A stretch of 64,000 bases of DNA, from positions 1-64,000 of the IMG/VR virus record IMGVR_UViG_2724679237_000005; one strand, given 5' to 3'. Below the pieces are notes generated by a model that worked only from the letters and a program-made list of their open reading frames with translations, had not been told where the DNA came from and did no database searches. Below, in pieces: positions 32-46,983 of the stretch. The stretch's first letter is position 1. Every line of letters starts with the position of its first letter. The position numbers and the translations under genes are program-made. The DNA comes from a virus (Duplodnaviria; Heunggongvirae; Uroviricota; Caudoviricetes).

Positions 32-298
32 TTACATCACCAGTAACTTCGCTTTGGCTCGACCTAAAGTGGTTAACCCAAGAGTTCGGCGGTGATAGCG
101 ATTGTCACTGCGTTGGCGCGTATGCCCTTTCTCCACCAGCCCCTTTTTTATCAGAGCGCGAATTGAGAACTGGATACTTTGCTTGGTTGTCTTGTACGGC
201 AAAACTTCAAGCAATTCGTCCAGATCAAGTAGATGACCTCGCTCATAACCGAGATTGAGCGTTTTGATGATGTCCTTTTGTTTATCGGTTAACGTCAT
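32..298 (-). CDS. small DNA-binding-like protein (winged-helix suspected), distal gene of the ParB-ABC-GNAT operon
   Basis: 88-aa ORF on the same strand, 9 nt after the GNAT-like ORF. The segment SIQFSIRALIKKGLVEKG looks like a wHTH recognition helix plus wing. No family recognised. Confidence 0.4.
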   Translation of the reverse strand: MTLTDKQKDIIKTLNLGYERGHLLDLDELLEVLPYKTTKQSIQFSIRALIKKGLVEKGHTRQRSDNRYHRRTLGLTTLGRAKAKLLVM

Positions 299-307
299 GG
301 CAAATCC

Positions 308-1198
308 TTATGCCGGTAAAGCAATTTCTAACGGTTTATCCAAAGGTTGTTTGTCGAATGCCAGCAGTGGCAGCGTGTCAGGCAGTCGACGACCAAAGTC
401 AGGGTTTCGGTACACACCATACAACGGAGACGTAAAGCTCAGGTTGTGAATGTCCTTGAGCAGCTTCACAATGCTGGCCTCGTCCACCAGACTGTCGGCA
501 ATGTCTTGAATTGTCGTGCCACGATTCCTCCCAGCTTTTGCCAGGGAACTGTTCTTGTGGTAGTCCGCCACCAGATCTCGCAGTGCACGGCGACGACGGG
601 ACTCGCTCATTGCGAACAACTCTTTGACGATCGCCTCGTTATCACCCGGGTCGGAACGGAAATGGCGCTGGAACACACGCAGTGCACTTTCATAGCTCTT
701 CGGTCGCTCAGGGCGGATGAACTTGAACCCTGCTTTCATGGCGAAGGGATTGTATTTGCTCATCGATGACTGGATCTCAATGATTGGCCGGTCATGCATC
801 CTGCTAACCAGGTTAATCATTCGATAAGAGACGCCTACGCCACGGTACTGGGTATCCACAACTGATCGACTGATCACCGCGAAGTTGTTATTCACGTACC
901 GACCCCAGTACTGGTTAGCCACGGTGGTATTAGTGGTTGGTTTCAACTTAGGAAACATGCGGTGGCGAGGTGCCAGCAGTAGTTTCGGGTAAGCCATAAC
1001 CACGACGCCCACCAGACGGTCATCAAGTTCGCAGCGATAGTAAGTTGGCGCGAAAGGTTTGCCGTCTGTTTTGTAGTGAAGCGACTTAAGAGCGTGCCAG
1101 TCCTCTACAGTTCCCCTTGTGACAGTCATTCGCTCCAGAAAGTCCAGATGACGCGGAAACTCTTCAGGGCGGTAGCGTTTAATGATGATGTCCGTCAT
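308..1198 (-). CDS. GNAT-like acetyltransferase-domain protein
   Basis: 296 aa. Its start overlaps the stop of the ATPase ORF (ATGA at 1195-1198). VVDTQYRGVGVSYRMINLV fits GNAT acetyl-CoA motif A (Q/R-x-x-G-x-G/A). The N-terminal ~90 aa are unassigned. Confidence 0.5.
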   Translation of the reverse strand: MTDIIIKRYRPEEFPRHLDFLERMTVTRGTVEDWHALKSLHYKTDGKPFAPTYYRCELDDRLVGVVVMAYPKLLLAPRHRMFPKLKPTTNTTVANQYWGRYVNNNFAVISRSVVDTQYRGVGVSYRMINLVSRMHDRPIIEIQSSMSKYNPFAMKAGFKFIRPERPKSYESALRVFQRHFRSDPGDNEAIVKELFAMSESRRRRALRDLVADYHKNSSLAKAGRNRGTTIQDIADSLVDEASIVKLLKDIHNLSFTSPLYGVYRNPDFGRRLPDTLPLLAFDKQPLDKPLEIALPA

Positions 1199-1860
1199 AA
1201 ATGAACCTCATCATGACTACCATTGTGATATTCCACCTTCACGCGTTCTTTGTAGTGCTTGGTGATCTGCATATCCGGGCGCAGCGCGTTCTTCAGGTCT
1301 TCGTGAGTCGTCGCCACCATTACCGTCGCACCAACCTTTCGAGCGGCACGCTGGAGGTTAGATGCCACAACCTGAGCGGTTACACGGTCTAGAACAGCAC
1401 CGAACTCGTCAGCAGCCCACACTTTAGCGCCTGACTCAATCAGTTTGGCAATCTTGAGACGATATTTCTGACCGTCTGACATTTCAGAAGGCTTGCGAAC
1501 AAACAGATATGCATCGTTCAGACCAGCCATAGATAACAACCCAAGCGCATCGCTGGTCGTTTTGCCCAACTGATCGATGACGTTAACCTCATTATCGAAG
1601 GTAAAATCATCGATGGAGGCTACAGACAGCCCTTCATCCTTCATCTGTCGTTGCAACTCGCGCAGCACAACGGATTTGCCGGAACCGGATTGGCCGGTGA
1701 TGTACACCACATCGCCCTGCTTCACTTCCAGCACCAGATTGTCGTAAAGCGTCCACTCTTTTTCGTCCAGGCCAAGCCCGAACGACTCAGCGATTTCCAA
1801 CGTGCGCGTGGTTTTATTTACGCGTGTCTGAAACGATACGTTGATGATGTATTTGCTCAT
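1195..1860 (-). CDS. soluble ABC-type ATPase
   Basis: 221 aa with Walker A GQSGSGKS, signature-like SDGQKYR, Walker B VWAADEF and H-loop TTHE. No TM partner. Overlaps both neighbours by 4 nt. Confidence 0.7.
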   Translation of the reverse strand: MSKYIINVSFQTRVNKTTRTLEIAESFGLGLDEKEWTLYDNLVLEVKQGDVVYITGQSGSGKSVVLRELQRQMKDEGLSVASIDDFTFDNEVNVIDQLGKTTSDALGLLSMAGLNDAYLFVRKPSEMSDGQKYRLKIAKLIESGAKVWAADEFGAVLDRVTAQVVASNLQRAARKVGATVMVATTHEDLKNALRPDMQITKHYKERVKVEYHNGSHDEVHL

Positions 1861-2525
1861 GCAGCCATCTCCCCGGAAGAGATCTTCTCCGCATATGCCA
1901 CAAATGCGTCTACCCCGCTTTCTCCCGTCATTTCTTCCATATGGGCAAGCAAATCACCAACAACAATGGCAGAGCCAGCAGGGAGCGTTTTAAAGCCCAA
2001 TACGTCGACAACACGTACTTCTTCCGCTGCAACTTCACGACTGATCTCGGTGTGTTCATCCTTCTGTCGTTTAGTTTCTTCGCCAAGATCGATAACTAGC
2101 GAGTCGGTGTCCATTTCTTCTGTCATACTGCCAACGAGAACATTCAACTCACGCTCTTCAAAGCCGAAAACCTCGATATCGTCCAGAACAAGCGACTCAA
2201 GCTCTTTCTGTAGCTTAATTGCATCGTAATCAATGCTGGCAAGTCGGTTATCTTCAAGGCGCTTCGCACGAACCTCGTCATCACTGAGATCATCGCGAAC
2301 AATAACCGGTACGCGCTCAAGTCCAGCAAAAATTGCAGCCTCACGGCGGCCATGACCAGTAATAATTACGTCGTTCTTATCGACCGTAATTGGCTGGTCA
2401 AATCCGCGCTTTTTAATGGCTGCGGCCAGATCTCTGATCTGCTGTTCATCATGCTTTTTGGCATTCATCTCATAGGGAATAAGATCTGCCGGGTCGCGAT
2501 ATACGATTTCAAACTTTTTGGTCAT
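1857..2525 (-). CDS. ParB/Srx-like nuclease-domain protein 1
   Basis: ATG at 2525 (MTKKFEIVYRDPADL) is preferred over the in-frame ATG at 2558. ParB-type motif ITGHGRREAAIFAGLERVPVIV. Acidic C-terminal half. Confidence 0.7.
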   Translation of the reverse strand: MTKKFEIVYRDPADLIPYEMNAKKHDEQQIRDLAAAIKKRGFDQPITVDKNDVIITGHGRREAAIFAGLERVPVIVRDDLSDDEVRAKRLEDNRLASIDYDAIKLQKELESLVLDDIEVFGFEERELNVLVGSMTEEMDTDSLVIDLGEETKRQKDEHTEISREVAAEEVRVVDVLGFKTLPAGSAIVVGDLLAHMEEMTGESGVDAFVAYAEKISSGEMAA

Positions 2526-3205
2526 TACATACGCTCCTTGTAGTAGTCGACCAGCCACACCAGAGCCTCACCAGCGTTCTCCATTTCATTACCGGTGTTA
2601 ATAGCCTGCTCTTTGATGATGTTTTTTATGGTTTCTGCAACACGATCTGACGCATCGAAGGTTACTTTGAAGCGCATGGTCTGATGTTCCGCACCGACAC
2701 GCTCGGTTTTCTCTCGTTTGTCGGTATCGACAGGCTCATCACTACCACGAGACAACGCCTCCAGTGCTTCAAGGTCGATTGCCGCCTCTTTTGCTAAAAC
2801 CATCGAGATTTCGTCGTCATACGGGGCGATTTCAGACAGTTGATAGTCAAGTTCTGACTGAATTTCTTCAATGAAGCGTTGCAATGCGATTTGGTCGTCT
2901 TCACCGTATCGCTCGTTGTCCACCAGTGACATCTGTTTTGCCACGACATCGCTAATTTTGCCCACAGAAAGCACTGGAACCGTTGAAATTCCTTGCTCAA
3001 TAGCGGCACGCCAGCGATGTTCGCCGCCGAGGATTTCAAAAAATCCATCTTCAAGTTCACGAGCCAAAATTGGCTTAAAAAAGCCCAATTTTTCGATAGA
3101 ACCTTTCAGTTTTTCAAAATTCTGCGCACCAACCGAATTGGTGTTCCAGGTATTCGGGCGAAGGTTGGCAACATCAACCTGCAAAATCGTGATTTTTACA
3201 TCCAT
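2525..3205 (-). CDS. ParB/Srx-like nuclease-domain protein 2
   Basis: ATG at 3205 (MDVKITILQVDV); a GTG at 3223 is also possible. Motif ILGGEHRWRAAIEQGISTVPVLSV. The stop shares nt 2525 with the next ORF's start. Confidence 0.7.
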   Translation of the reverse strand: MDVKITILQVDVANLRPNTWNTNSVGAQNFEKLKGSIEKLGFFKPILARELEDGFFEILGGEHRWRAAIEQGISTVPVLSVGKISDVVAKQMSLVDNERYGEDDQIALQRFIEEIQSELDYQLSEIAPYDDEISMVLAKEAAIDLEALEALSRGSDEPVDTDKREKTERVGAEHQTMRFKVTFDASDRVAETIKNIIKEQAINTGNEMENAGEALVWLVDYYKERM

Positions 3206-3223
3206 TTTATTGCTACAATACAC

Positions 3224-6409: not shown

Positions 6410-7009
6410 ATGAAAATGAAACTTTCGTTACTCCTTGCTTGTATATGCCTCCCGGCGTTTTCCGCCAACGCATTATCAGATTTCGTCTCTGACATGCAAA
6501 AAACGTACAGCATGTTTACCTCCGAAGACGTAGTAGAATACAAATCACGAGGTCTGAATCAGCCAGTTTGGTTCAGATTCTCAGACAACGCAGAAGAAAC
6601 AATACTTAATGGAGGAAAAGAAAGATTACGGTTGCAAATTAACGGGACCGCTGTACCAGAAAACGTTAATGTAAGCTCTGACGAAGCCATGAAGCCATCT
6701 GGAATTGTTTTAGAAGTTCAAGACGGCACACTTTACTGTGATGAAATGGCTACAACAGGTTGCCAAGTAAACATTAGGGTTGGCAATGAAGAGCCTATCG
6801 TTACTTACGCCAAGGCTGAAGGGAATACAAGTGGAAAGGTATTGTTTATCGATGAAAATATCTCAAAACGTATCGTTCGTGACATACAGAAAACAGCTAA
6901 CTCTAAATCCGTCGATAAAAAAATCTATGTTGAGGTTCCCTTCTTTGTCGTTGGTAACAAAGAATTTAAATTTGGGTTGCTGAAAACACCTCTAAGAGTA
7001 TCAGAATGA
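6410..7009 (+). CDS. exported protein (signal peptide; possible lipoprotein)
   Basis: ATG at 6410 gives MKMKLSLLLACICLPAFSANA. This reads as a signal peptide with either an LLAC lipobox or an ANA cleavage site. The stop overlaps the next ORF (ATGA). Confidence 0.6.
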   Translation: MKMKLSLLLACICLPAFSANALSDFVSDMQKTYSMFTSEDVVEYKSRGLNQPVWFRFSDNAEETILNGGKERLRLQINGTAVPENVNVSSDEAMKPSGIVLEVQDGTLYCDEMATTGCQVNIRVGNEEPIVTYAKAEGNTSGKVLFIDENISKRIVRDIQKTANSKSVDKKIYVEVPFFVVGNKEFKFGLLKTPLRVSE

Positions 7010-7530
7010 GAACATTGGACATCACCTACGGCATACCGGCTGAAGTCTGGCCGCGAGACTACGAACATGCTGAAAACATACTTATGTTCTGGCGGAAGAA
7101 CAACATTCCTGTAAGAGTCACGCTTGAAGACGGTCAGGTGTTTTGCATGTACGTTCAGGGGACAATGCCTTCCCGCAATAAGCTAGATTTATGCCCGCTT
7201 CCATATGATAAAGAAAATCGTATAAGACTCCCACTTGAGCGCATTAGCACAATTGAATCAGGTGTAATCGATGGCATTGCTCGCGAGTTCAAAGGTAGGC
7301 TAACAATACATCCAGACTATGTTGACAATCAGCCATCACGCCGTGACTTTTTTGCGATATGTCGCAAGGCTTATCAAAACGACCAATCTATAAGGGTCTA
7401 CATGGCAGACGGTCGTGAAATTGAAGGGGTGTCAAGAGGCGTTGATGCTTGCCAGGTCACTCTTAAGTTAGAAGACGGCAGAAAAATACTTGTTTTCTTC
7501 GATTGGGTCGAACGAATCCTTCCATTTTAA
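7006..7530 (+). CDS. protein with two Rof (Rho-binding antiterminator)-like repeats
   Basis: 174 aa. Two segments (DYEHAENILMFWRKNNIPVRVTLEDGQVF...IRLPLERISTIES and DFFAICRKAYQNDQSIRVYMADGREIEG...ILVFFDWVERI) resemble E. coli Rof as I remember it (DYDNLELAC..LTLELKDGEKLQ...LRLDKITSF). Confidence 0.45.
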   Translation: MRTLDITYGIPAEVWPRDYEHAENILMFWRKNNIPVRVTLEDGQVFCMYVQGTMPSRNKLDLCPLPYDKENRIRLPLERISTIESGVIDGIAREFKGRLTIHPDYVDNQPSRRDFFAICRKAYQNDQSIRVYMADGREIEGVSRGVDACQVTLKLEDGRKILVFFDWVERILPF

Positions 7531-8978: not shown

Positions 8979-8983
8979 AATCG

Positions 8984-9008
8984 AGCGCCCACTATGGGCG
9001 CTTTTTTC
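8984..9008 (+). terminator. rho-independent terminator
   Basis: agcgccca-cta-tgggcgct followed by tttttt. It is the mirror copy of the hairpin at 8489-8507. Confidence 0.85.
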
Positions 9009-9028
9009 GTTTCCAATACTCCCACCAT

Positions 9029-9056
9029 AACGCGCCATCATTAGCGCGTTTTTTAT
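9029..9056 (+). terminator. second tandem terminator
   Basis: aacgcgc-catcatta-gcgcgtt followed by tttttt. Confidence 0.7.
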
Positions 9057-9468
9057 TGTCTTTAACTCACTCCAACAACATAAAAATAAGCGCCAAAATA
9101 ACGCCATAGACGCGCTTTTATATTATTGCCAGTACATACCCATTACTTAACACATTAACGCGCTTAAAACGCGTTATATTGCGCTATAGCGCATAGTTAA
9201 TCATTGGCTTTTAGTCTTGCTATGTGATCCGCGTTTAATTGTCGGCGCGGATCGGCATTTTGTTTTGTTCCGTATCCGCTCGCGTATTATGTGCGCGTGA
9301 TTTTTCACATAATCACACCACTTAATCACGTATATGATTACGCTACGAAAGAAATCTGGATGTCTCAGGCGACGAAAGTCAGCATAATTTTCCCCGCTCA
9401 CCTGTCCGACAACCGCTGGTTGGATTCCACCAGCTTCCCGATGTTTTTTCTACATAAAGGCGAATGCA

Positions 9469-9545
9469 GCCGTTTCCCGAAAAAATCCTGGCCGTTTCCC
9501 GTCGGCTCATGAATACGTTCCTCGCCGTCTCTGAAAATTTCCCTG
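9469..9545. repeat. 22-bp-periodic GCCGTTTCCC-type repeat array (minor copy)
   Basis: gccgtttcccg occurs at 9469 and 9491 (both perfect). Degenerate copies sit near 9513 (acgttcctcg) and 9535 (aatttccctg). All are in the same orientation as the array at 12600-12733. Confidence 0.5.
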
Positions 9546-9560: not shown

Positions 9561-9586
9561 ATAGAGAAAGGGCCGTTTCTGGCCCT
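9561..9586 (-). terminator. rho-independent terminator of the 9595-10077 cassette
   Basis: On the minus strand, AGGGCC-agaaac-GGCCCT is followed by TTCTCTAT. Confidence 0.7.
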
Positions 9587-9594
9587 CTTCTCAG

Positions 9595-10077
9595 TTACAC
9601 GCCATCAAGGATGTGGATGCGGTTGCTTGCGTATACATTCAGCATAAAGTTAGCGCAAAACAGTTTCCATGTATCAACGCCAGCGGTATACGTAATGTTT
9701 TTGCATTTAATCGCATTGTTGGCGATCCGCATCCCCTGCGATACTGCTTCATCGTCGGAAAATTTGAACGACGATTGAGTTTTAATCCAGACAGAAATCT
9801 GCGTAGCGAACTCAATCAGCTTGGACTGGCAGAATCGCCCGGAGTGCACCGGAAAGACGAACGTTCCGAATCCAGAATTTACCACATACGCTTTCTCAAA
9901 TACCCGCGAGTAACGACGATTGCCAATGATGTCGCGTGCAATAATGCATTTTTCTTGTGCTGACAGTTCTACCGTCTCATTGTCGCGCCATGCACCAAGT
10001 ACTCGTTTTTCAATGTCAGAGAACGTTACAGCGATATTGCCATGTGCGGGTGCGTTTACAGTAGCGATAAAATTCAT
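9595..10077 (-). CDS. hypothetical protein
   Basis: 160-aa ORF with SD aaggaa and an A-type motif upstream. No motif recognised. Confidence 0.6.
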   Translation of the reverse strand: MNFIATVNAPAHGNIAVTFSDIEKRVLGAWRDNETVELSAQEKCIIARDIIGNRRYSRVFEKAYVVNSGFGTFVFPVHSGRFCQSKLIEFATQISVWIKTQSSFKFSDDEAVSQGMRIANNAIKCKNITYTAGVDTWKLFCANFMLNVYASNRIHILDGV

Positions 10078-10094
10078 GATTAATTCCTTATCGT

Positions 10095-10130
10095 AAATAA
10101 CAAATTGTTTTCTTGTTGGTGTTAATTATC
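10095..10130 (-). promoter_or_regulatory. A-type promoter/leader motif
   Basis: The plus strand reads aaataacaaattgttttcttgttggtgttaattatc. Palindromic core AACAAATTGTT. The minus strand carries a GATAAT -10-like hexamer. Confidence 0.55.
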
Positions 10131-10252
10131 GTTGTACGAATAAGGCGTCAAAGTGGAAAGTTGCGGTAGCCGGACGGGAACAGGTGGGTTTGTCGGTTGC
10201 CTGGAGGTAAGAGGTTGGTGTTTTTAGCCTGCGGGAAACAGGATGGTCATTT

Positions 10253-10276
10253 AAGGCCACCAATGCTGATGGCCTT
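10253..10276 (-). terminator. hairpin after the 10282-10425 ORF
   Basis: aaggcca-ccaatgctga-tggcctt. The U-tract is weak. Confidence 0.4.
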
Positions 10277-10281
10277 AATAA

Positions 10282-10425
10282 TTATCGACCGATTACGCTA
10301 AGGATCTTTTCCTCAACTGATTTGTTGTTGCGACTAAACTGCCTTGCGTATCTGATGACAGAAGAGGCGTTTTGCTTTCTGACCATCTCGGCTCTTTCCT
10401 TCAGGCGTTTCTTGAAATCGCCCAT
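10282..10425 (-). CDS. hypothetical 47-aa basic protein
   Basis: MGDFKKRLKERAEMVRKQNASSVIRYARQFSRNNKSVEEKILSVIGR. The start lies 2 nt after the upstream ORF's stop. It falls below the ORF-track cutoff. Confidence 0.35.
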   Translation of the reverse strand: MGDFKKRLKERAEMVRKQNASSVIRYARQFSRNNKSVEEKILSVIGR

Positions 10426-10427
10426 AT

Positions 10428-10802
10428 TTACCACCAGGCGCAGAAGGTCAGTCTGTTATTGTGAAAGTCGTGGTTCCTGATCAGGTCTTCCACAAGTTTT
10501 TTCAGCTTATCCACGTCATGCCAGTAACCTTCGTCGTACTCCTGACTGCCGAAGAAAAAACCTTCCCGAGTAGGCAAGTACTCTTCGCAATTGCTTTCGT
10601 TTATGTGCATCAAATGAGCTTTCAGAAGGCAAATGTCATTCATCGTTAATTCTAAAAGCTCACAATTTTCGACTTCACCTACGTTGCGCTCCATCCACCC
10701 AACGAGCGCATTGAACTTACGGAAGTAAGCAACCTGCTTTCTGGATGCCTCGTTATTCAGATCGTTTTTAGGCTGTGTCTCGATATAGATATCAAGTCCC
10801 AT
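10428..10802 (-). CDS. hypothetical protein
   Basis: ATG at 10802 (MGLDIYIETQ) follows the strong SD aaggaa. 124 aa. Confidence 0.6.
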   Translation of the reverse strand: MGLDIYIETQPKNDLNNEASRKQVAYFRKFNALVGWMERNVGEVENCELLELTMNDICLLKAHLMHINESNCEEYLPTREGFFFGSQEYDEGYWHDVDKLKKLVEDLIRNHDFHNNRLTFCAWW

Positions 10803-10857
10803 GATGGTTTCCTTATTAAGTTGCTTCAGTGAAATCATTTTCACAAATCAGATAAGG

Positions 10858-10888
10858 CAGAAAACAAATTGTTATCGGGCATAATAAA
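10858..10888 (-). promoter_or_regulatory. A-type promoter/leader motif
   Basis: cagaaaacaaattgttatcgggcataataaa. TATTAT on the minus strand. Confidence 0.5.
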
Positions 10889-10911
10889 ATGGCGCGGTTT
10901 GCGCGCCATTT
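10887..10911 (-). terminator. rho-independent terminator of the 10920-11315 cassette
   Basis: aaatggcgcg-gtttg-cgcgccattt is a 10-bp stem. Confidence 0.75.
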
Positions 10912-10919
10912 AAAGAGGA

Positions 10920-11315
10920 TTAAGCGAATACGCTTTCAGGGATTAAGGTGTCGGCAGGAATGCCAGAGGTAATGCGCAGACCGTACTGGCCAATCCAGGT
11001 GGTGCTGGTGTTCAGGCTGGAGGCGAATACGGTGTTAACCATATTCATCATGGTTTCAAACACCTCTTCATCAACCTGGCGGAAGTAGTTCTCGATTTTC
11101 AGCAGCAGCGGGTCAGTTGCATCGAGAATGGACTGGTATTGAGTCGCGTACTCGCCGCCGGAGGCATCACCTTTACGCACGATCGTACTGGCCTGGACTT
11201 CGGCACCAGTTTCGGTGTTGTACGTAACAACGGTGATTTTTGCCACATTCTTACCTTCGGCAGTTTCAGAGGCATAGTAAACATCAACTGTCAGTTTTTC
11301 GCGTTTAACGGTCAT
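10920..11315 (-). CDS. hypothetical protein
   Basis: ATG at 11315 (MTVKREKLTV) follows SD ggagag. 131 aa. Confidence 0.6.
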   Translation of the reverse strand: MTVKREKLTVDVYYASETAEGKNVAKITVVTYNTETGAEVQASTIVRKGDASGGEYATQYQSILDATDPLLLKIENYFRQVDEEVFETMMNMVNTVFASSLNTSTTWIGQYGLRITSGIPADTLIPESVFA

Positions 11316-11358
11316 TTCACTCTCCGTAGCGTATTGGTTATTTTTATATTCTATGATC

Positions 11359-11374
11359 GTAAGTATGTACTTAC
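11359..11374. promoter_or_regulatory. B-type operator inside a sigma70-like promoter
   Basis: gtaagtatgtacttac. The minus strand reads TTGTAA-17 nt-TAGAAT with the palindrome filling the spacer. Confidence 0.55.
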
Positions 11375-11383
11375 AATACAAAA

Positions 11384-11406
11384 AGCCCCGTAAGGATGGC
11401 GGGGCT
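11384..11406 (-). terminator. rho-independent terminator of the 11441-11752 cassette
   Basis: agccccg-taaggatgg-cggggct with TTTTGTATTG following on the minus strand. Confidence 0.75.
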
Positions 11407-11440
11407 GTCGTACTGTCGACTAATTACCACTTGCACATTA

Positions 11441-11752
11441 TCAGGCTATTGCCATCACTGATGCTCTCTGAATTTCTTGCTGGGCCACGCGGTTAACTTC
11501 CATCAAAGCCAGTTCGAGCTGATGTTCCGGCCACATTCTTTGAAATGCCACCCAGCCTTTTCCACGCTGGCGACGAACATTCATTACATAACGAGTAAAG
11601 GTGTTTTTATCGAAAGACACCGCTGTTTCACGGAACAGACGAATAGAGGTTCCATTGGCAACGATGTCCAGCAAAGTTAATTGAGCAACCAGTGCAGGCT
11701 TCTCTTTTCTCTTCTGGTCTTTGTCCAGACCAAGAACCAATGATTTTTTCAT
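11441..11752 (-). CDS. hypothetical protein
   Basis: ATG at 11752 (MKKSLVLGLD) follows SD ggag. 103 aa. Confidence 0.55.
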   Translation of the reverse strand: MKKSLVLGLDKDQKRKEKPALVAQLTLLDIVANGTSIRLFRETAVSFDKNTFTRYVMNVRRQRGKGWVAFQRMWPEHQLELALMEVNRVAQQEIQRASVMAIA

Positions 11753-11763
11753 CACAACTCCGT

Positions 11764-11797
11764 AAACAACTTGTTTTCTCAATGGCGTAAATAATAC
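11764..11797 (-). promoter_or_regulatory. A-type promoter/leader motif
   Basis: aaacaacttgttttctcaatggcgtaaataatacc. TATTAT on the minus strand. Confidence 0.5.
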
Positions 11798-11878
11798 CAG
11801 TAAGAAAACGGCTACAAAGCATATTGATCAGGTGCATAAGCGATACGCAGGTTCTTCCCTGCGGCTACAGATTAAGTT

Positions 11879-11898
11879 AAGCCAGCATTGCTGGCTTT
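11879..11898 (-). terminator. terminator of the 11906-12235 cassette
   Basis: aagccagc-att-gctggctt hairpin. Confidence 0.6.
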
Positions 11899-11905
11899 GA
11901 TTGGT

Positions 11906-12235
11906 TTACGCGAATACCTCAAGAAACTCCTGAACGTCCCAATGCTGGACAAGGTGAAGATAGACCTTAGAAATCACGTCATTCTCGCTATCGCATGTGA
12001 AGTAGTACTTCTGGCTGCGGTTGTATGTGTCCACACAAAATTCGCTCATATCCATAAAGTCAGCATCATCACCCAGGTCGCTAATCATCAAAGCAGGTGC
12101 ATCATCACGAGTCATCAGCTCCAGCACCCATCTTGAATTAATCAGAGTGGAAGACCAACCTTCCAGCTCATAAAACTGGTCAAACTCTTTTTGAGTCAAT
12201 TTCTTAATTTGGTTGATGTCGATATGTGCAAACAT
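11906..12235 (-). CDS. hypothetical acidic protein
   Basis: ATG at 12235 (MFAHIDINQ) follows SD aagga. 109 aa, Asp/Glu-rich (DLGDDADFMDMSEF). Confidence 0.55.
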   Translation of the reverse strand: MFAHIDINQIKKLTQKEFDQFYELEGWSSTLINSRWVLELMTRDDAPALMISDLGDDADFMDMSEFCVDTYNRSQKYYFTCDSENDVISKVYLHLVQHWDVQEFLEVFA

Positions 12236-12247
12236 AAAGCAATCCTT

Positions 12248-12280
12248 AAACAAGATGTTTTCTTAATGGTGTTATTATCG
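12248..12280 (-). promoter_or_regulatory. A-type promoter/leader motif
   Basis: aaacaagatgttttcttaatggtgttattatcg. GATAAT on the minus strand. Confidence 0.5.
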
Positions 12281-12599
12281 CAATAACGCACAGGCGAAAA
12301 AAGGATTTTATTCCGGTGAATGTGGTTTTGGCAGTGAGTTTTCAGGTTCAGTACAGAGTACACTTTTTACATTATTCTGATTTAGTGGCCGAAGATGGCT
12401 GGTGGGCAGAATAATCATCTCCCCGAAAACCTACTGAAATCGATTGTGACCCGTTGGCTGTCTGGCACAATTACGCTGTAACTGGGCATTCAGAGGGAAT
12501 CCAGCGGTAAGTAGGTTCGCCTTCACGTGAGCGCCTCTCTTCTTCCCGAACATTGCAGGTGGCCAGCCGCAACTCTCCCTCTCGCTATACCGGTACGCC

Positions 12600-12733
12600 G
12601 CCGTTCCTGAACCGGCATCGAGCCTTTTCCCGAAATCCACACAGGCAACTCGACCGTTTCCCTGAAAATCCCCAGCCGTTCCCCGAAGGCAACCCAGCCG
12701 TTTCTGTAGCGGGATGCAGCCTTTTCCCTGTAT
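12600..12733. repeat. iteron-like direct-repeat array, six copies of GCCGTTTCCC(t)GAA
   Basis: Copies start at 12600, 12622, 12653, 12675, 12698 and 12720, giving spacings of 22, 31, 22, 23 and 22 bp. All are in one orientation. The ORF-track ORFs crossing the array have no SD or start context. Confidence 0.65.
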
Positions 12734-12790
12734 GGACCGAAGGCTGACCGTAGGAGTGTTACGGGGGATAAAATCAGGAGTTGAATAAAT

Positions 12791-12817
12791 ACGAAAAAGG
12801 AGGCGACACCCCTCCTT
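12791..12817 (-). terminator. rho-independent terminator ending the C/A-rich transcript
   Basis: On the minus strand, aaGGAGG-ggtgtcg-CCTCCtt is followed by TTTTCGT. Confidence 0.65.
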
Positions 12818-13650
12818 CCCTCCCCACTTATACATACCTTGCTTCTTCGCTATACATGTTGTGTTTTCTTCGTGTTTTATCTGTCTCAACCTCTCTATAG
12901 GCGTTAATGCTTACTCCTTCCAGAAACTTCTATACGGCGACTATTTCTGTTGGTGAATTGGGTGTGTTGTTTTCTCTGTCGGTGTATGTGGTTTCGTTCG
13001 TTTTGCGGTGGTTCTTCTATGGGGTGTTCTCGTCGTTTTGGTGATTGTTCTTCTCCGTGTATGGAGTAATGGCAGGTGGGCGATTCCTTTCGTTATTGTG
13101 TTTGAGTTGTTTGTCTGGAGTGCGTGAAGGGCTTTTGTAGTTATTCGTGTATTGGGTAATGGCGTTTCCCGTGATTGTTATGTTTCGTGTCTTTTGGGAT
13201 TGAGAGAAACCTTGCGGTTACAGGCTTCGTTGGGGTTTCAGCGGTTCAGGTGTTTCTTCGCTGTTTGGGTAATGGCGTGTCGTGGGTATCGCGCGTATGA
13301 ATGTTTTCGGATTGCCTGTGAAAGTTAGGTTGGTTGTCCGGTAGCCTGGGGAGAAGAGGTGGGTCTTTTCGGTAGCCTGCCATAAAGAGGTTGGTTGTTT
13401 TGGGTAATGGCATATGTGTTATTTAGTTGTTTTGTTATGCCTGAAAATAAGTTGTTTATATGGTTGTGTAACGCAACGGGAGCGATTTTGAGCGTGTGTT
13501 TTTGTTGGTAGTGTGTTGAGTCGTCTGTAGTGAAAATTGGACGCTGTGGAGCTGTCTGCTGCGTAGGATTACGAGTATAAGAAGTGATGTGTGAAAACGT
13601 CAATTTTTTAGACCAAATCGGGTGAAGGCGTTGACGTTTCGTTGATCTGT
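12818..13650 (-). ncRNA. candidate ~0.85-kb non-coding transcript, C/A-rich and G/U-poor
   Basis: It is bounded by an A-type motif (13651-13683) and the terminator at 12791-12817. The only ORF (13325-13603) has a TTG start and a low-complexity Q/T/P/N product. The plus strand is strikingly G+T-rich. Confidence 0.3.
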
Positions 13651-13683
13651 TATTCAGTTGTTTTCTTATTGGTATAAATAACT
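13651..13683 (-). promoter_or_regulatory. A-type promoter/leader motif (half-palindrome) with no downstream ORF
   Basis: tattcagttgttttcttattggtataaataact. It keeps the CCAATAAGAAAAC leader, but the left half of the core is degenerate. Confidence 0.4.
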
Positions 13684-13795
13684 ATAACCTATTGATATTT
13701 AAGGATGTGATTGCGGGTATGGAGGGAGGGTAGTGGCGATCAACGGATTCTTATAGAAAAGAATCAAATTGTGACCGCCATTATCAACGGTTTGG

Positions 13796-13981
13796 TTAGA
13801 TGAGATGGTCTAATTCATCATCTATCATGGCTTTGACGCTGGAGTCATTCACTCCATATTTATTTATGAGCTGTTTCAGCTCTGGCGAAAACTGAAGGTA
13901 GATATCGTGAGCGTTTTTCACTGTAGGTTCAACGCCACGCATTTCAAGCGCCTTTAGTAGATATGAGTCTTCTTTAAGCAT
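13796..13981 (-). CDS. hypothetical small protein
   Basis: 61-aa ORF downstream of the 14018-14317 ORF. Confidence 0.45.
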   Translation of the reverse strand: MLKEDSYLLKALEMRGVEPTVKNAHDIYLQFSPELKQLINKYGVNDSSVKAMIDDELDHLI

Positions 13982-14478: not shown

Positions 14479-16512
14479 TTACTTAACCTGGTGACCAGGT
14501 TTAGCACCAGCATCCGGGCTTAACAGGAAGATATCTTTCCCGCCGGGGCCAGCAGCCATCACCATGCCTTCAGAGATACCGAAGCGCATTTTACGCGGAG
14601 CCAGGTTAGCCACCATAATGGTGTGACGACCAATCAGTGCCTGTGGATCTGGATAAGCGGAACGGATGCCTGAGAAGACATTACGCTTTTCACCACCGAG
14701 ATCCAGCGTCAGGCGAAGCAGTTTGTCAGAACCTTCGACAAACTCCGCGTTTTCAATCAGCGCCACACGCAGGTCAACTTTGGCGAAGTCGTCAAAGGTG
14801 ATGGTTTCCTGAATCGGGTCGTCAGCCAGTGGGCCAGTTACCGGTGCAGCTGTGGCTTTCACTTCTTCTTTGGATGCTTCCACCAGTGCTTCCACCTGTT
14901 TCATATCGATACGGTTATACAGTGCCTTGAACGGATTCACTTTATGGCCCAGCAGCGGTTGCTGGATACCATCCCAGGTCAGTTCTGTATTCAGGAATGC
15001 TTCTGCACGTTCAGTCAGTTTCGGCAGTACCGGTTTCAGGTACGTCATCAGCACGCGGAACAGGTTAATGCCCATAGAGCAAATCGCCTGCAGATCGGCA
15101 TCGCGTCCTTCCTGCTTCGCCACCACCCACGGAGCCTGTTCATCGACATAGCGGTTAGCCAGATCAGCCAGCGCCATGATTTCACGAATCGCTTTACCAA
15201 ATTCGCGGCTTTCCCATGCTTCACCAATCACTTCAGCGGCATCAGTAAAGGTTTTGTACAGTTGCGGGTCAGCCAGTTCGCCTGCCAGCACACCGTCAAA
15301 ACGCTTATTGATAAAGCCCGCGTTACGGGACGCCAGATTCACCACTTTGTTCACGATATCGGCATTCACGCGCTGAACGAAATCCTCCAGGTTGAGATCG
15401 ATATCATCAATGCGCGAAGAGAGTTTCGCAGTGTAGTAGTAACGCAGGCTGTCAGCGTCAAAATGATTCAGCCAGGTGCTGGCTTTAATAAAGGTGCCGC
15501 GAGACTTGGACATCTTCGCACCGTTCACCGTCACATAGCCATGAACAAACAGGTTGGTCGGCTTGCGGAAGTTGCTGCCTTCCAGCATGGCAGGCCAGAA
15601 CAGGCTGTGGAAGTAAACGATATCTTTACCGATGAAGTGGTACAGCTCGGCGGTGGAATCTTTCTTCCAGTATTCATCGAAGCTTACGCTGTCGCCGCGC
15701 TTATCACACAGATTCTTGAAAGAGCCCATATAGCCAATCGGTGCGTCCAGCCAGACGTAGAAATATTTACCCGGCGCGTTCGGAATTTCAAAACCGAAGT
15801 AAGGTGCATCGCGGGAGATATCCCACTGTTGCAGACCAGATTCAAACCACTCCTGCATTTTGTTTGCCACCTGCTCCTGCAACGCACCGCTGCGGGTCCA
15901 TGCCTGCAACATTTCGCTGAAAGAGGGCAGATCAAAGAAGAAGTGTTCAGAATCACGCATTACCGGCGTAGCGCCAGAAACCACCGATTTCGGTTCGATC
16001 AATTCAGTCGGGCTATATGTTGCGCCGCAGACTTCACAGTTATCGCCATATTGATCAGGTGCTTTACATTTCGGGCAGGTGCCTTTCACAAAACGGTCCG
16101 GCAGGAACATGCCTTTTTCCGGGTCGTACAACTGAGAGATAGTGCGGTTTTTAATAAAACCGTTCTCTTTCAGGCGAGTATAGATAAGCTCAGACAACTG
16201 ACGGTTCTCTTCGCTGTGCGTCGAGTGATAGTTGTCATAGCTGATGTTAAAGCCTGCGAAATCAGTCTGGTGTTCCTGACTCATTTCGCCAATCATCTGC
16301 TCCGGTGTGATACCAAGTTGCTGTGCTTTCAGCATGATCGGCGTGCCGTGGGCATCGTCGGCACAGATGAAATTAACCTCGTGGCCGCGCATTCGTTGGT
16401 AACGAACCCAGACATCAGCCTGGATGTGCTCCAGCATATGGCCGAGGTGGATTGAGCCGTTAGCGTACGGCAGCGCGCACGTCACCAGAATTTTCTTCGC
16501 GACTTGGGTCAT
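14479..16512 (-). CDS. metG: methionine--tRNA ligase
   Basis: 677 aa from [25 protein letters not shown]. Carries the HLGH (HIGH-class) and KMSKS motifs, CPKC/CEVC zinc knuckles and a C-terminal Trbp111-like domain. It differs at only a handful of positions from E. coli MetG as I remember it. Confidence 0.97.
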
Positions 16513-16669
16513 AGTAGGCATTACTTCTTTGTAGTGAAAAGGGGCTTGATAGTAACAAAATGGCCTTATGTCTGCCATGTGATAACAGCATTTCTCATAA
16601 ATGATTAAATGTCGTAGCTGGAGTACACTACAAGGCGACAATTGCGCAAATTAAAATAAAGGAGACGGG

Positions 16670-45114: not shown

Positions 45115-45337
45115 TTATTCACATATCCACAGGATAGATCCTAATAAAGAGATCCATAGATAGATCCTTGTATAGATCAAATAAGATCCCCGATCGCTGT
45201 AAGCCGCTCCACGACTGGTCTGAAGCCATGTTCATGTATGCTGCCAGCGGTAATTGATAGTCTGTCAACGGTTCGCCGTATGCTGCCAACTGTTTTTGGT
45301 ATGCTGCCAGCGGCAAATCAAGTATGCTGTCAGCGGT
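45115..45337 (+). other. P1-oriR-like plasmid replication origin
   Basis: Tandem DnaA boxes ttattcaca (45115-45123) and atatccaca (45123-45131). Six GATC sites between 45137 and 45195, five of them in AGATC(C) repeats spaced 10-14 bp apart. Four iterons TATGCTGYCARCKGT at 45237, 45279, 45300 and 45323, just upstream of repA. Confidence 0.8.
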
Positions 45338-46452: not shown

Positions 46453-46983
46453 TATGCTGTCAGCGGTGAAATGTATGCTATCAGCGGCTATTTTTCTGAA
46501 AAGTATGCTGTGAACGGTTAAAGATATGCTACCAGCGGTATAGTGAGATGAACGTATGCTGTGAGCGGTAAATCATCTATCACCACTCAATGCTCTGTCA
46601 TACCTCCCCAGTGGTTACTAACCTCGAAGAGTGCATTCCATATAGGTTTGCGCTCACTAACATTCTATTGCTATTGCGCTGATTGCTTGTAGTGAAAGGC
46701 ATTTATTGCCTGCTGCTCCTGATAGAACGTATGCTGTCAGAGGTGTTTTATTGAGGAATTTTTGTTTGGATATGCTATCAGCGGTAATTAATGGCATATG
46801 TCAGACCTTCGTATGCTGCCAGCGGTAATTTTGTTCTGGTTATACCCATACCGGTACATATTATTCATGCAATGTCTTAAGTATGCTGTCAGCGGTAAAA
46901 AATCGAGTAAAGTATGCTGTGAGCGGTGAGATAGACTCTCGATATGCTATCAGCGGCAGTTGATTGTGTATGCTGTCAGCGGT
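46453..46983 (+). repeat. incA-like downstream iteron array (12 copies)
   Basis: TATGCTNNNARNGGY copies (TATGCT and GG invariant) start at 46453, 46474, 46504, 46525, 46555, 46729, 46770, 46812, 46882, 46913, 46944 and 46969. All are in the same orientation as the four upstream copies. Confidence 0.85.

Follow-up and report, generated by a model that had tools for sequence, protein, structure and literature searches.

Conserved, phased direct-repeat arrays in an SSU5/pHCM2-like phage-plasmid: candidate protein-binding sites with a possible role in lytic-phase replication

Two arrays of a short direct repeat lie in non-coding DNA of the 64-kb window analysed here (the whole stretch of DNA under study), which belongs to an SSU5/pHCM2-like phage-plasmid. 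They are very probably phased arrays of protein-binding sites. The role that we favour for them, as a lytic-phase pair of the ori/crr kind, is put forward tentatively, and the same caution applies to the statement as a whole, in which protein binding and the origin role are combined. The reader of the arrays would be a protein that the element presumably encodes.

Phage-plasmids of the SSU5/pHCM2 type are among the most frequent ones in Klebsiella, E. coli, Enterobacter and Salmonella Typhi; they are related to Yersinia pestis pMT1, and resistance genes are found on them. How their plasmid replicon works is understood from its analogy to known replicons. Our literature search found nothing on the lytic replication start, the choice of packaging site or the silencing of early lytic genes in this group, and no description of these arrays or of SSU5-like virion ends. 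The two arrays and the adjoining 1.1 kb of conserved non-coding DNA are the clearest candidate for a cis-acting control region of the family. Finding the reader would give a function to at least one conserved protein of unknown function, and the arrays are short enough for direct testing.

Results

Organization of the two arrays

12600..12740, plus strand: array 1, six same-orientation units of the motif nCCKTTyCCC
12600-12609, 12622-12631, 12653-12662, 12675-12684, 12697-12706 and 12719-12728, plus strand: the 10-bp cores of array 1, at spacings of 22, 31, 22, 22 and 22 bp
9469..9545, plus strand: array 2 (the sister array), with exact GCCGTTTCCC at 9469 and 9491, and degenerate GCCGTCTCTG at 9524 and AAAATTTCCC at about 9534

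Array 1 is made up of GCCGTTCCTG at 12600, GCCTTTTCCC at 12622, ACCGTTTCCC at 12653, GCCGTTCCCC at 12675, GCCGTTTCTG at 12697 and GCCTTTTCCC again at 12719. The six copies in one orientation described in an earlier sequence-only reading are all present, but the last two start at 12697 and 12719, one base before the positions first given (12698 and 12720). The 22-bp periodicity claimed there holds for four steps and is broken once, by the 31-bp step from copy 2 to copy 3. The likeness to iteron geometry stands, as the same-orientation copies lie two or three helical turns apart.

The motif is concentrated at the arrays. Allowing at most one mismatch, GCCGTTTCCC has eight matches on the plus strand of the window, seven of them at 9469-9500 or 12622-13170; four fall inside 150 bp, which none of 300 dinucleotide shuffles reproduced. 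Array 1 has a G+C content of 60%, against 39-47% in its flanks. The smaller array of the same motif, 3.1 kb from array 1, was also seen as described, with its two exact copies at 9469 and 9491 and spacings of 22, 33 and 10. A supposed additional copy at 13161 is present (GGCGTTTCCC), but it is a member of another repeat family, GGGTAATGGCG. A motif scan of the whole plasmid, including the neighbourhood of its ParA-type cassette, gave no further array.

The plasmid replicon has iterons of its own (TATGCTGYCAGCGGT, at 45.2-47.0 kb), which are real and, as previously noted, unrelated in sequence to the array motif. They resemble the arrays in being tandem and of one orientation, with a short core, variable spacers and more than one cluster per element, and two-turn spacing with three-turn steps is found in both (21/30 bp in the RepA iterons, 22/31 bp in the arrays). 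Tandem same-orientation repeats in more than one cluster are likewise a feature of other Rep_3/RepA-type replicons (P1 oriR/incA, F, R6K). However, the arrays have no adjacent rep gene, the only Rep_3 gene lying 33 kb away, at about 45-46 kb, with its own iterons, and their cores are 9-10 bp long as compared with 17-22 bp in classical iterons. Reading of the sequence and the alignment gave neither an AT-rich unwinding element nor a conserved DnaA box beside the arrays; one DnaA-box-like sequence (7/9) in a spacer of array 1 is not conserved. Copy control or handcuffing had been suggested; for the RepA replicon, such a role is unlikely given the difference in motif and the distance of 33 kb to the array.

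Conservation across relatives

It had been allowed that the arrays might be absent from close relatives; instead, both are conserved across the family, with position, orientation and register kept in relatives from E. coli, Klebsiella, Enterobacter, Salmonella and Citrobacter. The 22/31/22/22/22 register of array 1 is identical in six of them (L005, L006, L007, which is pHCM2, L009, L010 and L011), even though the gap around array 1 is merely 65-74% identical in relatives with that register. All SSU5-like relatives keep the exact pair of array 2, 22 bp apart, as does Yersinia pestis pMT1, which has lost array 1 and the adjacent region. In a distant pCAV-type plasmid the motif is kept but the register is not: the copies there are separated by 34 and 37 bp, and strict phasing at 22 bp thus does not hold throughout.

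Natural indels comprise losses of 22 nt (L019), 23 nt (L031) and 9 nt (the Klebsiella group, in which the 31-bp step becomes 22), and helical phase is therefore preserved. Conservation is 0.80 in the cores and 0.68 in the spacers. The consensus at positions 2-10 is CCKTTyCCC, and across all units and sequences, core positions 2, 3, 5, 6 and 8 reach an invariance of at least 87%. Taken together, the conserved position, orientation and register and the phase-preserving indels argue strongly for a function. In one relative with neighbouring proteins of only 30-50% identity, the motif has not changed, an observation equally compatible with a host factor as the reader.

Among viral contigs, the motif pair of array 2 is specific to the SSU5/pHCM2-type phage-plasmid family: 61 of the 62 contigs that carry it are SSU5-like and map to the place of array 2, and the one match outside these elements is at chance level. 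A scan of the genome collection gave 86 matches, mostly in unrelated taxa, where rough arithmetic predicts about 9; they include relatives from Kluyvera and Y. pestis.

Coding potential and RNA structure

The claim that the array lies in a non-coding region is supported. In the closest plasmid and in most relatives, PGAP has no annotation at 12254-13795. Column variability by codon position is 0.647, 0.650 and 0.671 bits, and thus without 3-nt periodicity, whereas periodicity at 22 nt is strong, from which we conclude that the stretch is non-coding. The long stop-free minus-strand frames over array 1 are a composition effect. A coding reading (ORF 12431-12889 on the minus strand; CYRAN_104 in phage Cyrano) was rejected given the lack of codon periodicity and the frame-breaking indels in relatives.

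We also considered an element acting at the RNA level, in which the minus-strand GGGAAA(C/A)GGC repeats would bind an RNA-binding protein such as CsrA (A(N)GGA sites) or an FljA-like protein. The minus strand carries about 8 GGA motifs in 135 nt, a leftward promoter is predicted upstream, at 13603, and the gene of an FljA-family protein (PF03614, E = 5e-81) lies 2 kb from array 2. The GGA motifs are shared with sponge RNAs of the CsrB/RsmZ type, but the conserved hairpin loops that present GGA in those RNAs were not found here: the covariation term of RNAalifold is about 0 on both strands, the only conserved fold is one terminator-like hairpin, and no Rfam family was matched. Furthermore, both arrays lie downstream of terminator-like hairpins, the 9-10 conserved bases extend well past GGA, and the phase-preserving indels of 22, 23 and 9 nt constrain DNA and not RNA. 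We regard an RNA-level function as extremely unlikely.

Genomic surroundings

9595..12253, minus strand: island of five small early genes (160, 138, 131, 103 and 109 aa), bracketed by arrays 1 and 2
12741..12836, no strand assigned: conserved right flank of array 1, with CCGAAGGCTGACCG, GTTACGGGGGAT, CTTGAATnnnTACG and CCCACTTATAC, from alignments
12794-12820, minus strand: terminator-like hairpin in the right flank, from a terminator scan
12840..13795, no strand assigned: rest of the 1.55-kb conserved gene-free region, adjoining array 1, with an extremely G+T-rich plus strand
Within 12840..13795: other repeats, namely the GGGTAATGGCG family and 30-31-nt CGGTAGCCTG..GAGGTGGGT repeats at 13327-13400
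13603->13574: predicted leftward promoter, TTGACG-18-TATACT (10/12), from a promoter scan
8983-9003, 9029-9050, 9225-9254 and 9281-9297 (within 8983..9297), plus strand: terminator-like hairpins, from the terminator scan

Array 1 borders on the largest conserved stretch without genes in the window. Among 838 plasmids that match this region, most of them lacking an annotated gene there, diverged relatives show 65-74% identity; the region is also found in the pCAV-type plasmid L078. The helix of the hairpin at 12794-12820 is kept in 16 sequences, with G-U/G-C changes on one side, and its U-tail is weak in some relatives. On the far side of the island, the hairpins at 8983..9297 end a rightward operon with helicase and FljA-like genes ahead of array 2, and the first two of them are conserved in relatives. 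A possible hairpin on the other side of array 2, at about 9563-9590 on the minus strand, was read by eye and not called by the scan.

The island genes fall into PHROG families that are all of unknown function, and Pfam and NCBIfam likewise give nothing beyond that. Four of the five have a promoter-like or operator-like element, AACAAnTTGTTTTC, just upstream (10099, 10863, 11765 and 12249); the operator-like motif has 26 matches, as compared with 3.8 expected.

These surroundings raise the alternative that an array-bound protein is a polar roadblock or insulator placed after terminators, which would shield early lytic genes from leftward read-through out of the cargo genes and the non-coding region. 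In a variant, the arrays would control the island from a distance, as an operator or enhancer. Following leftward transcription, array 1 comes just after a terminator-like hairpin, as does array 2 (there, the eye-read hairpin uncalled by the scan), and both have the same polarity relative to that transcription. An untranslated RNA of about 800 nt from the DNA on the right of array 1 would be C-rich and G-poor, ideal for the loading of Rho, which uses C-rich, G-poor rut sites. The cargo beyond it is variable (metG/apbC, DUF4145 and restriction-modification genes) and partly expressed in the Cyrano lysogen, in which CYRAN_99 and CYRAN_102 are among the genes listed as lysogen-expressed (PMC9928086). 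However, a boundary role leaves the need for 4-6 phased sites unexplained. As an operator, array 1 would be far from the next promoter (about 265 bp), and the island promoters already carry a dispersed operator of different sequence. We know of no bacterial precedent for multi-site roadblock arrays of this kind. We consider the boundary role, including its variant, decidedly improbable.

Discussion

In the scenario that we favour, each array would serve as a cis-acting row of 4-6 sites (core CCKTTTCCC) in one orientation. With the sites two or three helical turns apart, all of them would lie on one face of the helix, and a sequence-specific DNA-binding protein may bind them cooperatively and build a higher-order complex. 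The array pair would then be the recognition region of the phage-type DNA machinery of the lytic phase, that is, a second origin or an origin-enhancer pair separate from the RepA plasmid replicon, comparable to ori/crr of P4. The adjacent 1.1 kb of repeat-rich, strand-skewed non-coding DNA, together with its promoter, could form the remainder of the origin region.

The element encodes a phage replisome (DnaE, a DnaB-like helicase, primase, ligase and RNase H) and has no annotated lytic origin, which we count in favour of an origin role. The persistence of pMT1 as a plasmid without array 1 fits a lytic role, and fits dispensability equally well. No initiator-like gene was seen beside either array, and the cumulative GC skew, taken over the entire plasmid, runs monotonically, without an origin signal. 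An origin of the R-loop type was considered and is unsupported, since the G-rich strand would be the non-template strand only for rightward transcription and no rightward promoter was found. Among 30 neighbouring proteins searched against Pfam, PHROGs and NCBIfam, there was no Rep-like assignment and no reader was identified. AlphaFold2 models of ParB-N protein 1 (pLDDT 52) and of the 219-aa protein (pLDDT 62, with the C-terminal half below 50) are both of low confidence, and Foldseek gave no match in the PDB below E = 1.

In P4, the ori and crr clusters lie 4.5 kb apart, are bound by one protein and are both needed in cis for replication. As in the arrays described here, there are two clusters of one short direct repeat, a few kilobases apart (3.1 kb here). 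However, the P4 repeat, TGTTCACC, and its spacing differ from those of the arrays. In P4 the sites are read by the alpha primase-helicase, whose gene lies between them, and no homologue or equivalent of this protein was identified here.

Phased direct repeats are also known from centromeres. In R1 parC/ParR, pB171 parC1/parC2 and pSK41 they organise a protein filament or superhelix, and in pB171 the two arrays flank a block of genes, as the arrays do here. Such centromeres, which are of the ribbon-helix-helix type, have units of 6-20 bp and are located at the promoter of the par operon to which they belong, whereas neither a par operon nor a promoter is present within our arrays, and the DNA between and beside them holds no par genes.

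A related possibility is that the arrays are a loading, centromere-like or silencing site for the ParB-N (CTPase-fold) proteins of the element, with the repeats as half-sites. The resulting assembly would partition or position the DNA, or silence the island between the arrays in a KorB-like way. The element has genes for two ParB_N proteins (Pfam E = 3e-13 and 1.5e-8, with PDB matches to Spo0J/ParB/Noc), which are 64-66% identical in the pCAV-type plasmid, in which the motif is unchanged. The core GTTTCCC resembles the parS half-site, GTTTCAC, and that of Noc, ATTTCCC, and three units contain partial palindromes of the form TTTC-N2/3-GAAA. Both arrays are near terminator-like sites, where transcription is likely low, and centromeres usually sit where transcription is low. 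By eye, the C-terminus of ParB-N protein 1 shows a beta-alpha-alpha sequence pattern, compatible with a ribbon-helix-helix domain, a type of domain that reads direct repeats.

A centromere was one of the roles first suggested, but a classical ParB centromere is unlikely. The window has no palindromic parS-type site (TTTC-N4-GAAA, with a gap of 4); parS, NBS and OB sites are palindromes of 13-16 bp, single or dispersed, unlike the 22-bp direct repeats of the arrays. No par operon adjoins the arrays, and the small ParA-type ATPase cassette of the plasmid lies elsewhere and is free of the motif. In the ParB-N proteins, an HTH is not recognisable, the GERR motif reads GEHR, and the C-terminal part has no Pfam or PDB match and is modelled by AlphaFold2 with pLDDT below 50. 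The two parB-N genes and that of an ABC-type ATPase are 6-10 kb from the arrays, in the late operon, where the parB-N genes stand at the head, next to the terminase. ParB-N genes are absent from the Cyrano genes listed as lysogen-expressed (PMC9928086). A 63.8-kb derivative from E. albertii lacks the ParB-N, terminase and structural genes and yet keeps both arrays at about 97% identity, although this carries no information if the deletion is recent. Overall, a ParB-N site, whether for partition or for silencing, is unlikely.

The other candidate readers are encoded beside the large terminase. In this case the arrays would be terminase or packaging recognition sites, read by a TerS-like HTH protein or by the 88-aa wHTH protein; in a stronger version, they would bound a direct terminal repeat of about 3.1 kb that carries early "host-takeover" genes, as in T5 and SPO1. 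Part of the attraction comes from lambda. The earlier statement that CGTTTCC is the core of the lambda cosB R sites is correct, as it occurs in lambda at 53 (plus), 114 (minus) and 155 (plus), where R3, R2 and R1 lie, and the array core is identical to these three sites. However, a 7-base match to one known motif, found post hoc, is weak evidence. The small DNA-binding proteins that adjoin TerL are a 210-aa protein (phrog_867, "DNA binding domain"; no Pfam family) and the 88-aa wHTH-like protein (32-298, minus strand; weak LexA_DNA_bind, E = 0.07), and the helix regions of both have hardly changed in the pCAV-type plasmid. Over 91% of its length, TerL shares about 25% identity with T5-like TerL proteins, but it is equally related to TerL of Jersey-like and other siphoviruses. 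A direct-orientation pair of arrays around promoter-equipped small genes is what we would expect at the boundaries of a terminal repeat.

In both lambda cosB and the arrays, multiple sites serve, or are presumed to serve, a small DNA-binding protein, but the arrangement differs. Lambda has three R sites of mixed orientation, spaced 61 and 41 bp and next to cosN and nu1; the arrays have 4-6 sites in one orientation, 22 bp apart. Similarity to Nu1 is lacking in the neighbouring proteins (blastp E > 9 for the TerS-like 210-aa protein and E = 3.9 for the 88-aa wHTH protein). Pac and cos sites generally lie within terS or next to it, whereas the arrays are about 9 and 12 kb from the terminase genes, which lie just past the left end of the window. 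These differences make a role like that of lambda cosB, which the sequence-only reading had entertained, unlikely. Packaging sites in the broader sense, with or without a terminal repeat, we judge distinctly unlikely as well.

That the arrays are the end-defining signals of a long direct terminal repeat of the T5/SPO1 style, in a temperate phage-plasmid, is very unlikely, but it would have clear consequences. Both ends of the virion DNA would carry the island of about 3.1 kb, which would be the first part to enter and to be expressed. The injection-stop region of T5 would have its counterpart in the neighbouring 1.1-kb block of repeat-rich, strand-skewed non-coding DNA, and the readers would come from the head of the late operon (the wHTH, TerS-like or ParB-N proteins).

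The evidence singles out no one role for the arrays; the lytic origin is the one that we favour, with ParB-type, terminase and insulator roles as less likely alternatives. Chi sites, which are frequent throughout (13, as compared with 1.3 expected) and follow a different orientation logic at the two arrays, were ruled out as part of the element; those at 9427 (minus strand) and 9551 (plus strand) flank array 2, and one at 12398 (plus strand) is near array 1.

A phased repeat array in non-coding DNA

The surroundings of the array show 94-97% identity to E. coli plasmids, among them pEC881_2 (NZ_CP019027.1), and to the phage Cyrano from strain LF82; Salmonella phage SSU5 matches only part of the region around the array, at 72% identity. 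In pEC881_2 the annotation includes a siphovirus structural module with terminase, many genes for replication and nucleotide metabolism, a Rep_3 plasmid initiator and a small ParA-type cassette. Given these identities and this gene content, the window is, judged by sequence, an SSU5/pHCM2-type phage-plasmid. Array 1 comprises six direct repeats, and the same motif recurs in a sister array (array 2; 9469-9545).

Repeat copies of the two arrays
12600, +, array 1 copy 1, GCCGTTCCTG
12622, +, array 1 copy 2, GCCTTTTCCC
12653, +, array 1 copy 3, ACCGTTTCCC
12675, +, array 1 copy 4, GCCGTTCCCC
12697, +, array 1 copy 5, GCCGTTTCTG
12719, +, array 1 copy 6, GCCTTTTCCC
9469 and 9491, +, array 2, exact copies in the sequence
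9524 and about 9534, +, array 2, degenerate copies in the sequence

The sequence-only reading had placed array 1 correctly to within one base, with the last two starts now at 12697 and 12719. Its 22-bp period holds for four of the five steps (22, 31, 22, 22, 22 bp), the exception being a single three-turn step of 31 bp. With at most one mismatch, GCCGTTTCCC has eight matches on the + strand of the 64 kb, seven of them in two short stretches. Four fall inside 150 bp, which was reached by none of 300 dinucleotide-preserving shuffles.

Array 1 sits in a 1.55-kb gap (12254-13795) where PGAP annotates no gene in pEC881_2 and most relatives. A 152-codon minus-strand ORF and a Cyrano 'hypothetical protein' both overlap it. 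We rejected a coding role: the minus strand is poor in T, so stop-free frames are long in several frames at once. In a set of 13 non-redundant relatives, column entropy hardly changes from one codon position to the next (0.647, 0.650 and 0.671), and the phase-mean difference is 1.07 bits at period 22 versus 0.15 at period 3. Indels of 22, 23, 9 and 31 nt occur across the array region in relatives. The empty gap, the periodicities and the indels bear out the earlier claim that array 1 is non-coding.

Conservation across relatives

Array 1 is a genuine non-coding feature, both conserved and phased. In distant mode, a search with the gap matched 838 plasmids from Klebsiella, Escherichia, Enterobacter, Salmonella, Citrobacter and Cronobacter; diverged relatives among the matches listed are 65-74% identical over the gap, almost always without an annotated gene. 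Copy positions (0, 22, 53, 75, (97) and 119) are identical in representatives from E. coli, Citrobacter, Enterobacter and Salmonella Typhi (pHCM2). Pooled over every unit and sequence, the core consensus at positions 2-10 is C C K T T y C C C, with positions 2, 3, 5, 6 and 8 being 87-99% invariant, while spacers vary (conservation score 0.80 in cores versus 0.68 in spacers).

Natural length variants of array 1 stay in helical phase. In one E. coli-type contig precisely one 22-nt unit is missing, a second lineage lacks 23 nt, the Klebsiella lineage is missing 9 nt, turning the 31-bp step into 22, and a further lineage has lost units 1-2 and kept four near-perfect units at 22-bp spacing. Array 2 is as well conserved as array 1 and is present also in Yersinia pestis pMT1, where an IS1541 rearrangement removed array 1 and the adjoining non-coding DNA.

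In a pCAV-type plasmid, a distant relative from Klebsiella, neighbouring proteins are just 30-50% identical, yet it retains the 1.5-kb gap, the same core motif in both locations, the G+T-rich block and the 30-nt repeats. Because its motif copies stand 34 and 37 bp apart, the strict 22-bp register is, on the sequences compared, a property of the SSU5 group proper. Scanning a viral contig collection for two motif copies spaced 22 bp gave 62 contigs, of which 61 are SSU5-like and one is a chance-level match.

A DNA element and its candidate readers

RNAalifold consensus folds of 16 diverse sequences are weak on either strand (-18 and -9 kcal/mol over 285 columns), and the covariation term is zero on both. 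The only helix preserved throughout the 16 is a hairpin at 12794-12820, terminator-like on the minus strand and just upstream of array 1. No Rfam family matched the window. The weak folds, zero covariation, lack of an Rfam match and phase-preserving indels favour what would be a DNA-level element read by a protein. Read on the minus strand, array 1 has about eight GGA motifs, as might suit a protein-binding RNA; that the array acts as one is very unlikely, and nothing speaks positively for it.

Array 1 is very probably a platform for cooperative binding by a sequence-specific protein. The element's own RepA iterons (TATGCTGYCAGCGGT) form clusters of five, five and seven copies around the Rep_3 gene (45237-45337, 46453-46569 and 46730-46983), an origin plus inc arrangement like that of P1. 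With steps of 21 and 30 bp they share the geometry of the array, but their sequence is completely different, and therefore a different protein must read the array, as had been proposed. Since the pCAV-type plasmid carries the core motif unaltered, good conservation is to be expected of the reader; a host factor could also serve.

Candidate readers, with identity to the pCAV-type plasmid
Two ParB_N proteins, 64-66%
SF2 helicase, 72%
32-298, -, 88-aa wHTH-like protein, 78%, helix region unchanged
TerS-like 210-aa HTH protein, 59%
219-aa protein, 48%

The 88-aa protein has a MarR/LexA-like winged-helix sequence pattern, with a Pfam LexA_DNA_bind match of only E = 0.07; its gene lies between a 296-aa late-operon gene (308-1198) and a small-terminase-like gene beyond the window's left end. 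The model of the 219-aa protein is confident solely in an N-terminal helical bundle, and a search found no structural neighbour for it.

A loading or silencing site for the ParB_N proteins is a less than likely role. These two proteins and a 221-aa ABC-type ATPase (1195-3223, -) are encoded at the start of the late operon, which continues into the terminase genes; all three keep 64-86% identity even in the pCAV-type plasmid. The ParB_N proteins have a CTPase-fold N-domain, with GGEHRWRAA in place of GERRxRA, and no recognisable HTH. At the C-terminus the sequence follows a beta-alpha-alpha pattern that may be a ribbon-helix-helix domain, with no Pfam or PDB match and an AF2 pLDDT below 50. Both arrays persist at about 97% identity in a degraded E. 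albertii plasmid that has no ParB_N, terminase or structural genes; the deletion is probably too recent to be informative on the reader.

We consider a terminase or terminal-repeat boundary signal improbable. The lambda cosB core, CGTTTCC, does occur three times at the lambda left end (53+, 114- and 155+), where R3, R2 and R1 are known to lie. The match is genuine, though it spans just 7 bases and was noticed post hoc. Against a lambda-like cosB, neither the putative small terminase nor the wHTH protein shows Nu1 similarity, the sites here have a single orientation and lie 22 bp apart, and 9-12 kb separate the arrays from the terminase genes. TerL shares about 25% identity with T5-like TerL proteins and likewise with those of Jersey-like and other siphoviruses, relationships that would not settle the packaging mode. 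The literature searched contains no published virion-end data for the SSU5-like family.

No known family can claim the array: for each, a defining feature was looked for and is lacking, be it a cognate gene alongside, a palindromic site or a small terminase of Nu1 type. The element is undescribed in the literature searched. We tentatively favour, as a possible role, a lytic-phase origin or origin-enhancer pair analogous to P4 ori and crr, because the element has a complete phage replisome without a known lytic origin, the array borders the largest conserved stretch of non-coding DNA, and its geometry is that of iterons.

Genomic surroundings

Both arrays lie in gene-free DNA close to terminator-like sites, and either might mark a transcriptional boundary, a role we also think unlikely. 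Array 2 is in a convergent gap between leftward genes and a rightward helicase/FljA-like operon, which ends in four terminator-like hairpins (8983-9297). Reading leftward, array 1 comes after the 12794-12820 hairpin and before the promoter that serves the next leftward gene. TAATCAC occurs twice within 9310-9340, between those four hairpins and array 2, with a perfect palindrome, TAATCA-CGTATA-TGATTA, at 9323-9340.

The five small genes between the arrays have no functional assignment. A sigma-70-like promoter lies ahead of four of them, together with a palindromic operator-like motif, AACAAnTTGTT (GAAAACAAnTTGTTTTC), which is found in at least 14 places in the window (26 matches versus 3.8 expected).

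Sites of GAAAACAAnTTGTTTTC
4861, 7484, 10099, 10863, 11765, 12249, 13443, 14332, 14383, 25468, 26182, 26911, 37131, 55252, 61286

Most copies are just downstream of sigma-70-like promoters of small genes, and one is upstream of the ParA-type gene beyond the window. The motif looks like the dispersed operator of a master repressor, by analogy with P1.

Further repeat families lie right of array 1 in the gene-free 12254-13795. The + strand there is extremely G+T-rich for about 850 bp (12900-13750; GC skew reaches +0.59 and AT skew -0.82), and no other strand asymmetry in the window comes near it. A good leftward promoter is predicted at 13603->13574; its transcript would be a C-rich, G-poor, unstructured, untranslated RNA, ideal for Rho loading. 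The left arm of an inverted repeat conserved family-wide, GAAAACGTCAA-N27-TTGACGTTTC (13593-13640), overlaps the -35 hexamer of this promoter. Inside the G+T-rich block, GGGTAATGGCG occurs at 13068, 13155, 13268 and 13403 (+) with irregular spacing (90, 113 and 135 bp), and in inverse orientation near 9140; with at most one mismatch it has 11 matches in the window versus 2.7 expected, and up to six copies in relatives.

A second family, CGGTAGCCTG-N9-GAGGTGGGT, with a 30-31-nt period, has two to three copies each at 13327-13400 and 10161-10252 and is kept in relatives including the pCAV type (TGCCTG..GGTGT). Each locus is about 600-700 bp right of a GCCGTTTCCC array, and the array 1 and array 2 loci therefore look like paralogous modules.

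Chi (GCTGGTGG) is in ten-fold excess, with 13 sites in the window versus 1.3 expected. Those at 9427(-) and 9551(+) form an inward-facing pair around array 2, and one at 12398(+) is 200 bp left of array 1. The orientation logic differs between the arrays; all three sites are non-coding and kept in relatives. Of interest alongside this density, a 61-aa protein (13796-13981, -) matches the T7 gp5.9 family of RecBCD inhibitors below threshold (PF25708, E = 0.006, 17 bits; cut-off 24.5).

Directly right of the non-coding region is a cargo hot-spot, holding metG and an ApbC/MinD-like gene in the window (14479-17770). At the homologous place, the compared relatives (L005-L011) carry DUF4145, a DUF262 gene with a type I restriction-modification system, ydfZ or LprI. 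FljA is the phase-1 flagellin repressor in Salmonella and acts on fliC mRNA. The gene at 7006-7530 (+), annotated 'transcriptional regulator', encodes a full-length FljA homologue (PF03614, E = 5e-81) with a weak Hfq-like signal at its C-terminus, and is conserved in pMT1 and pHCM2.
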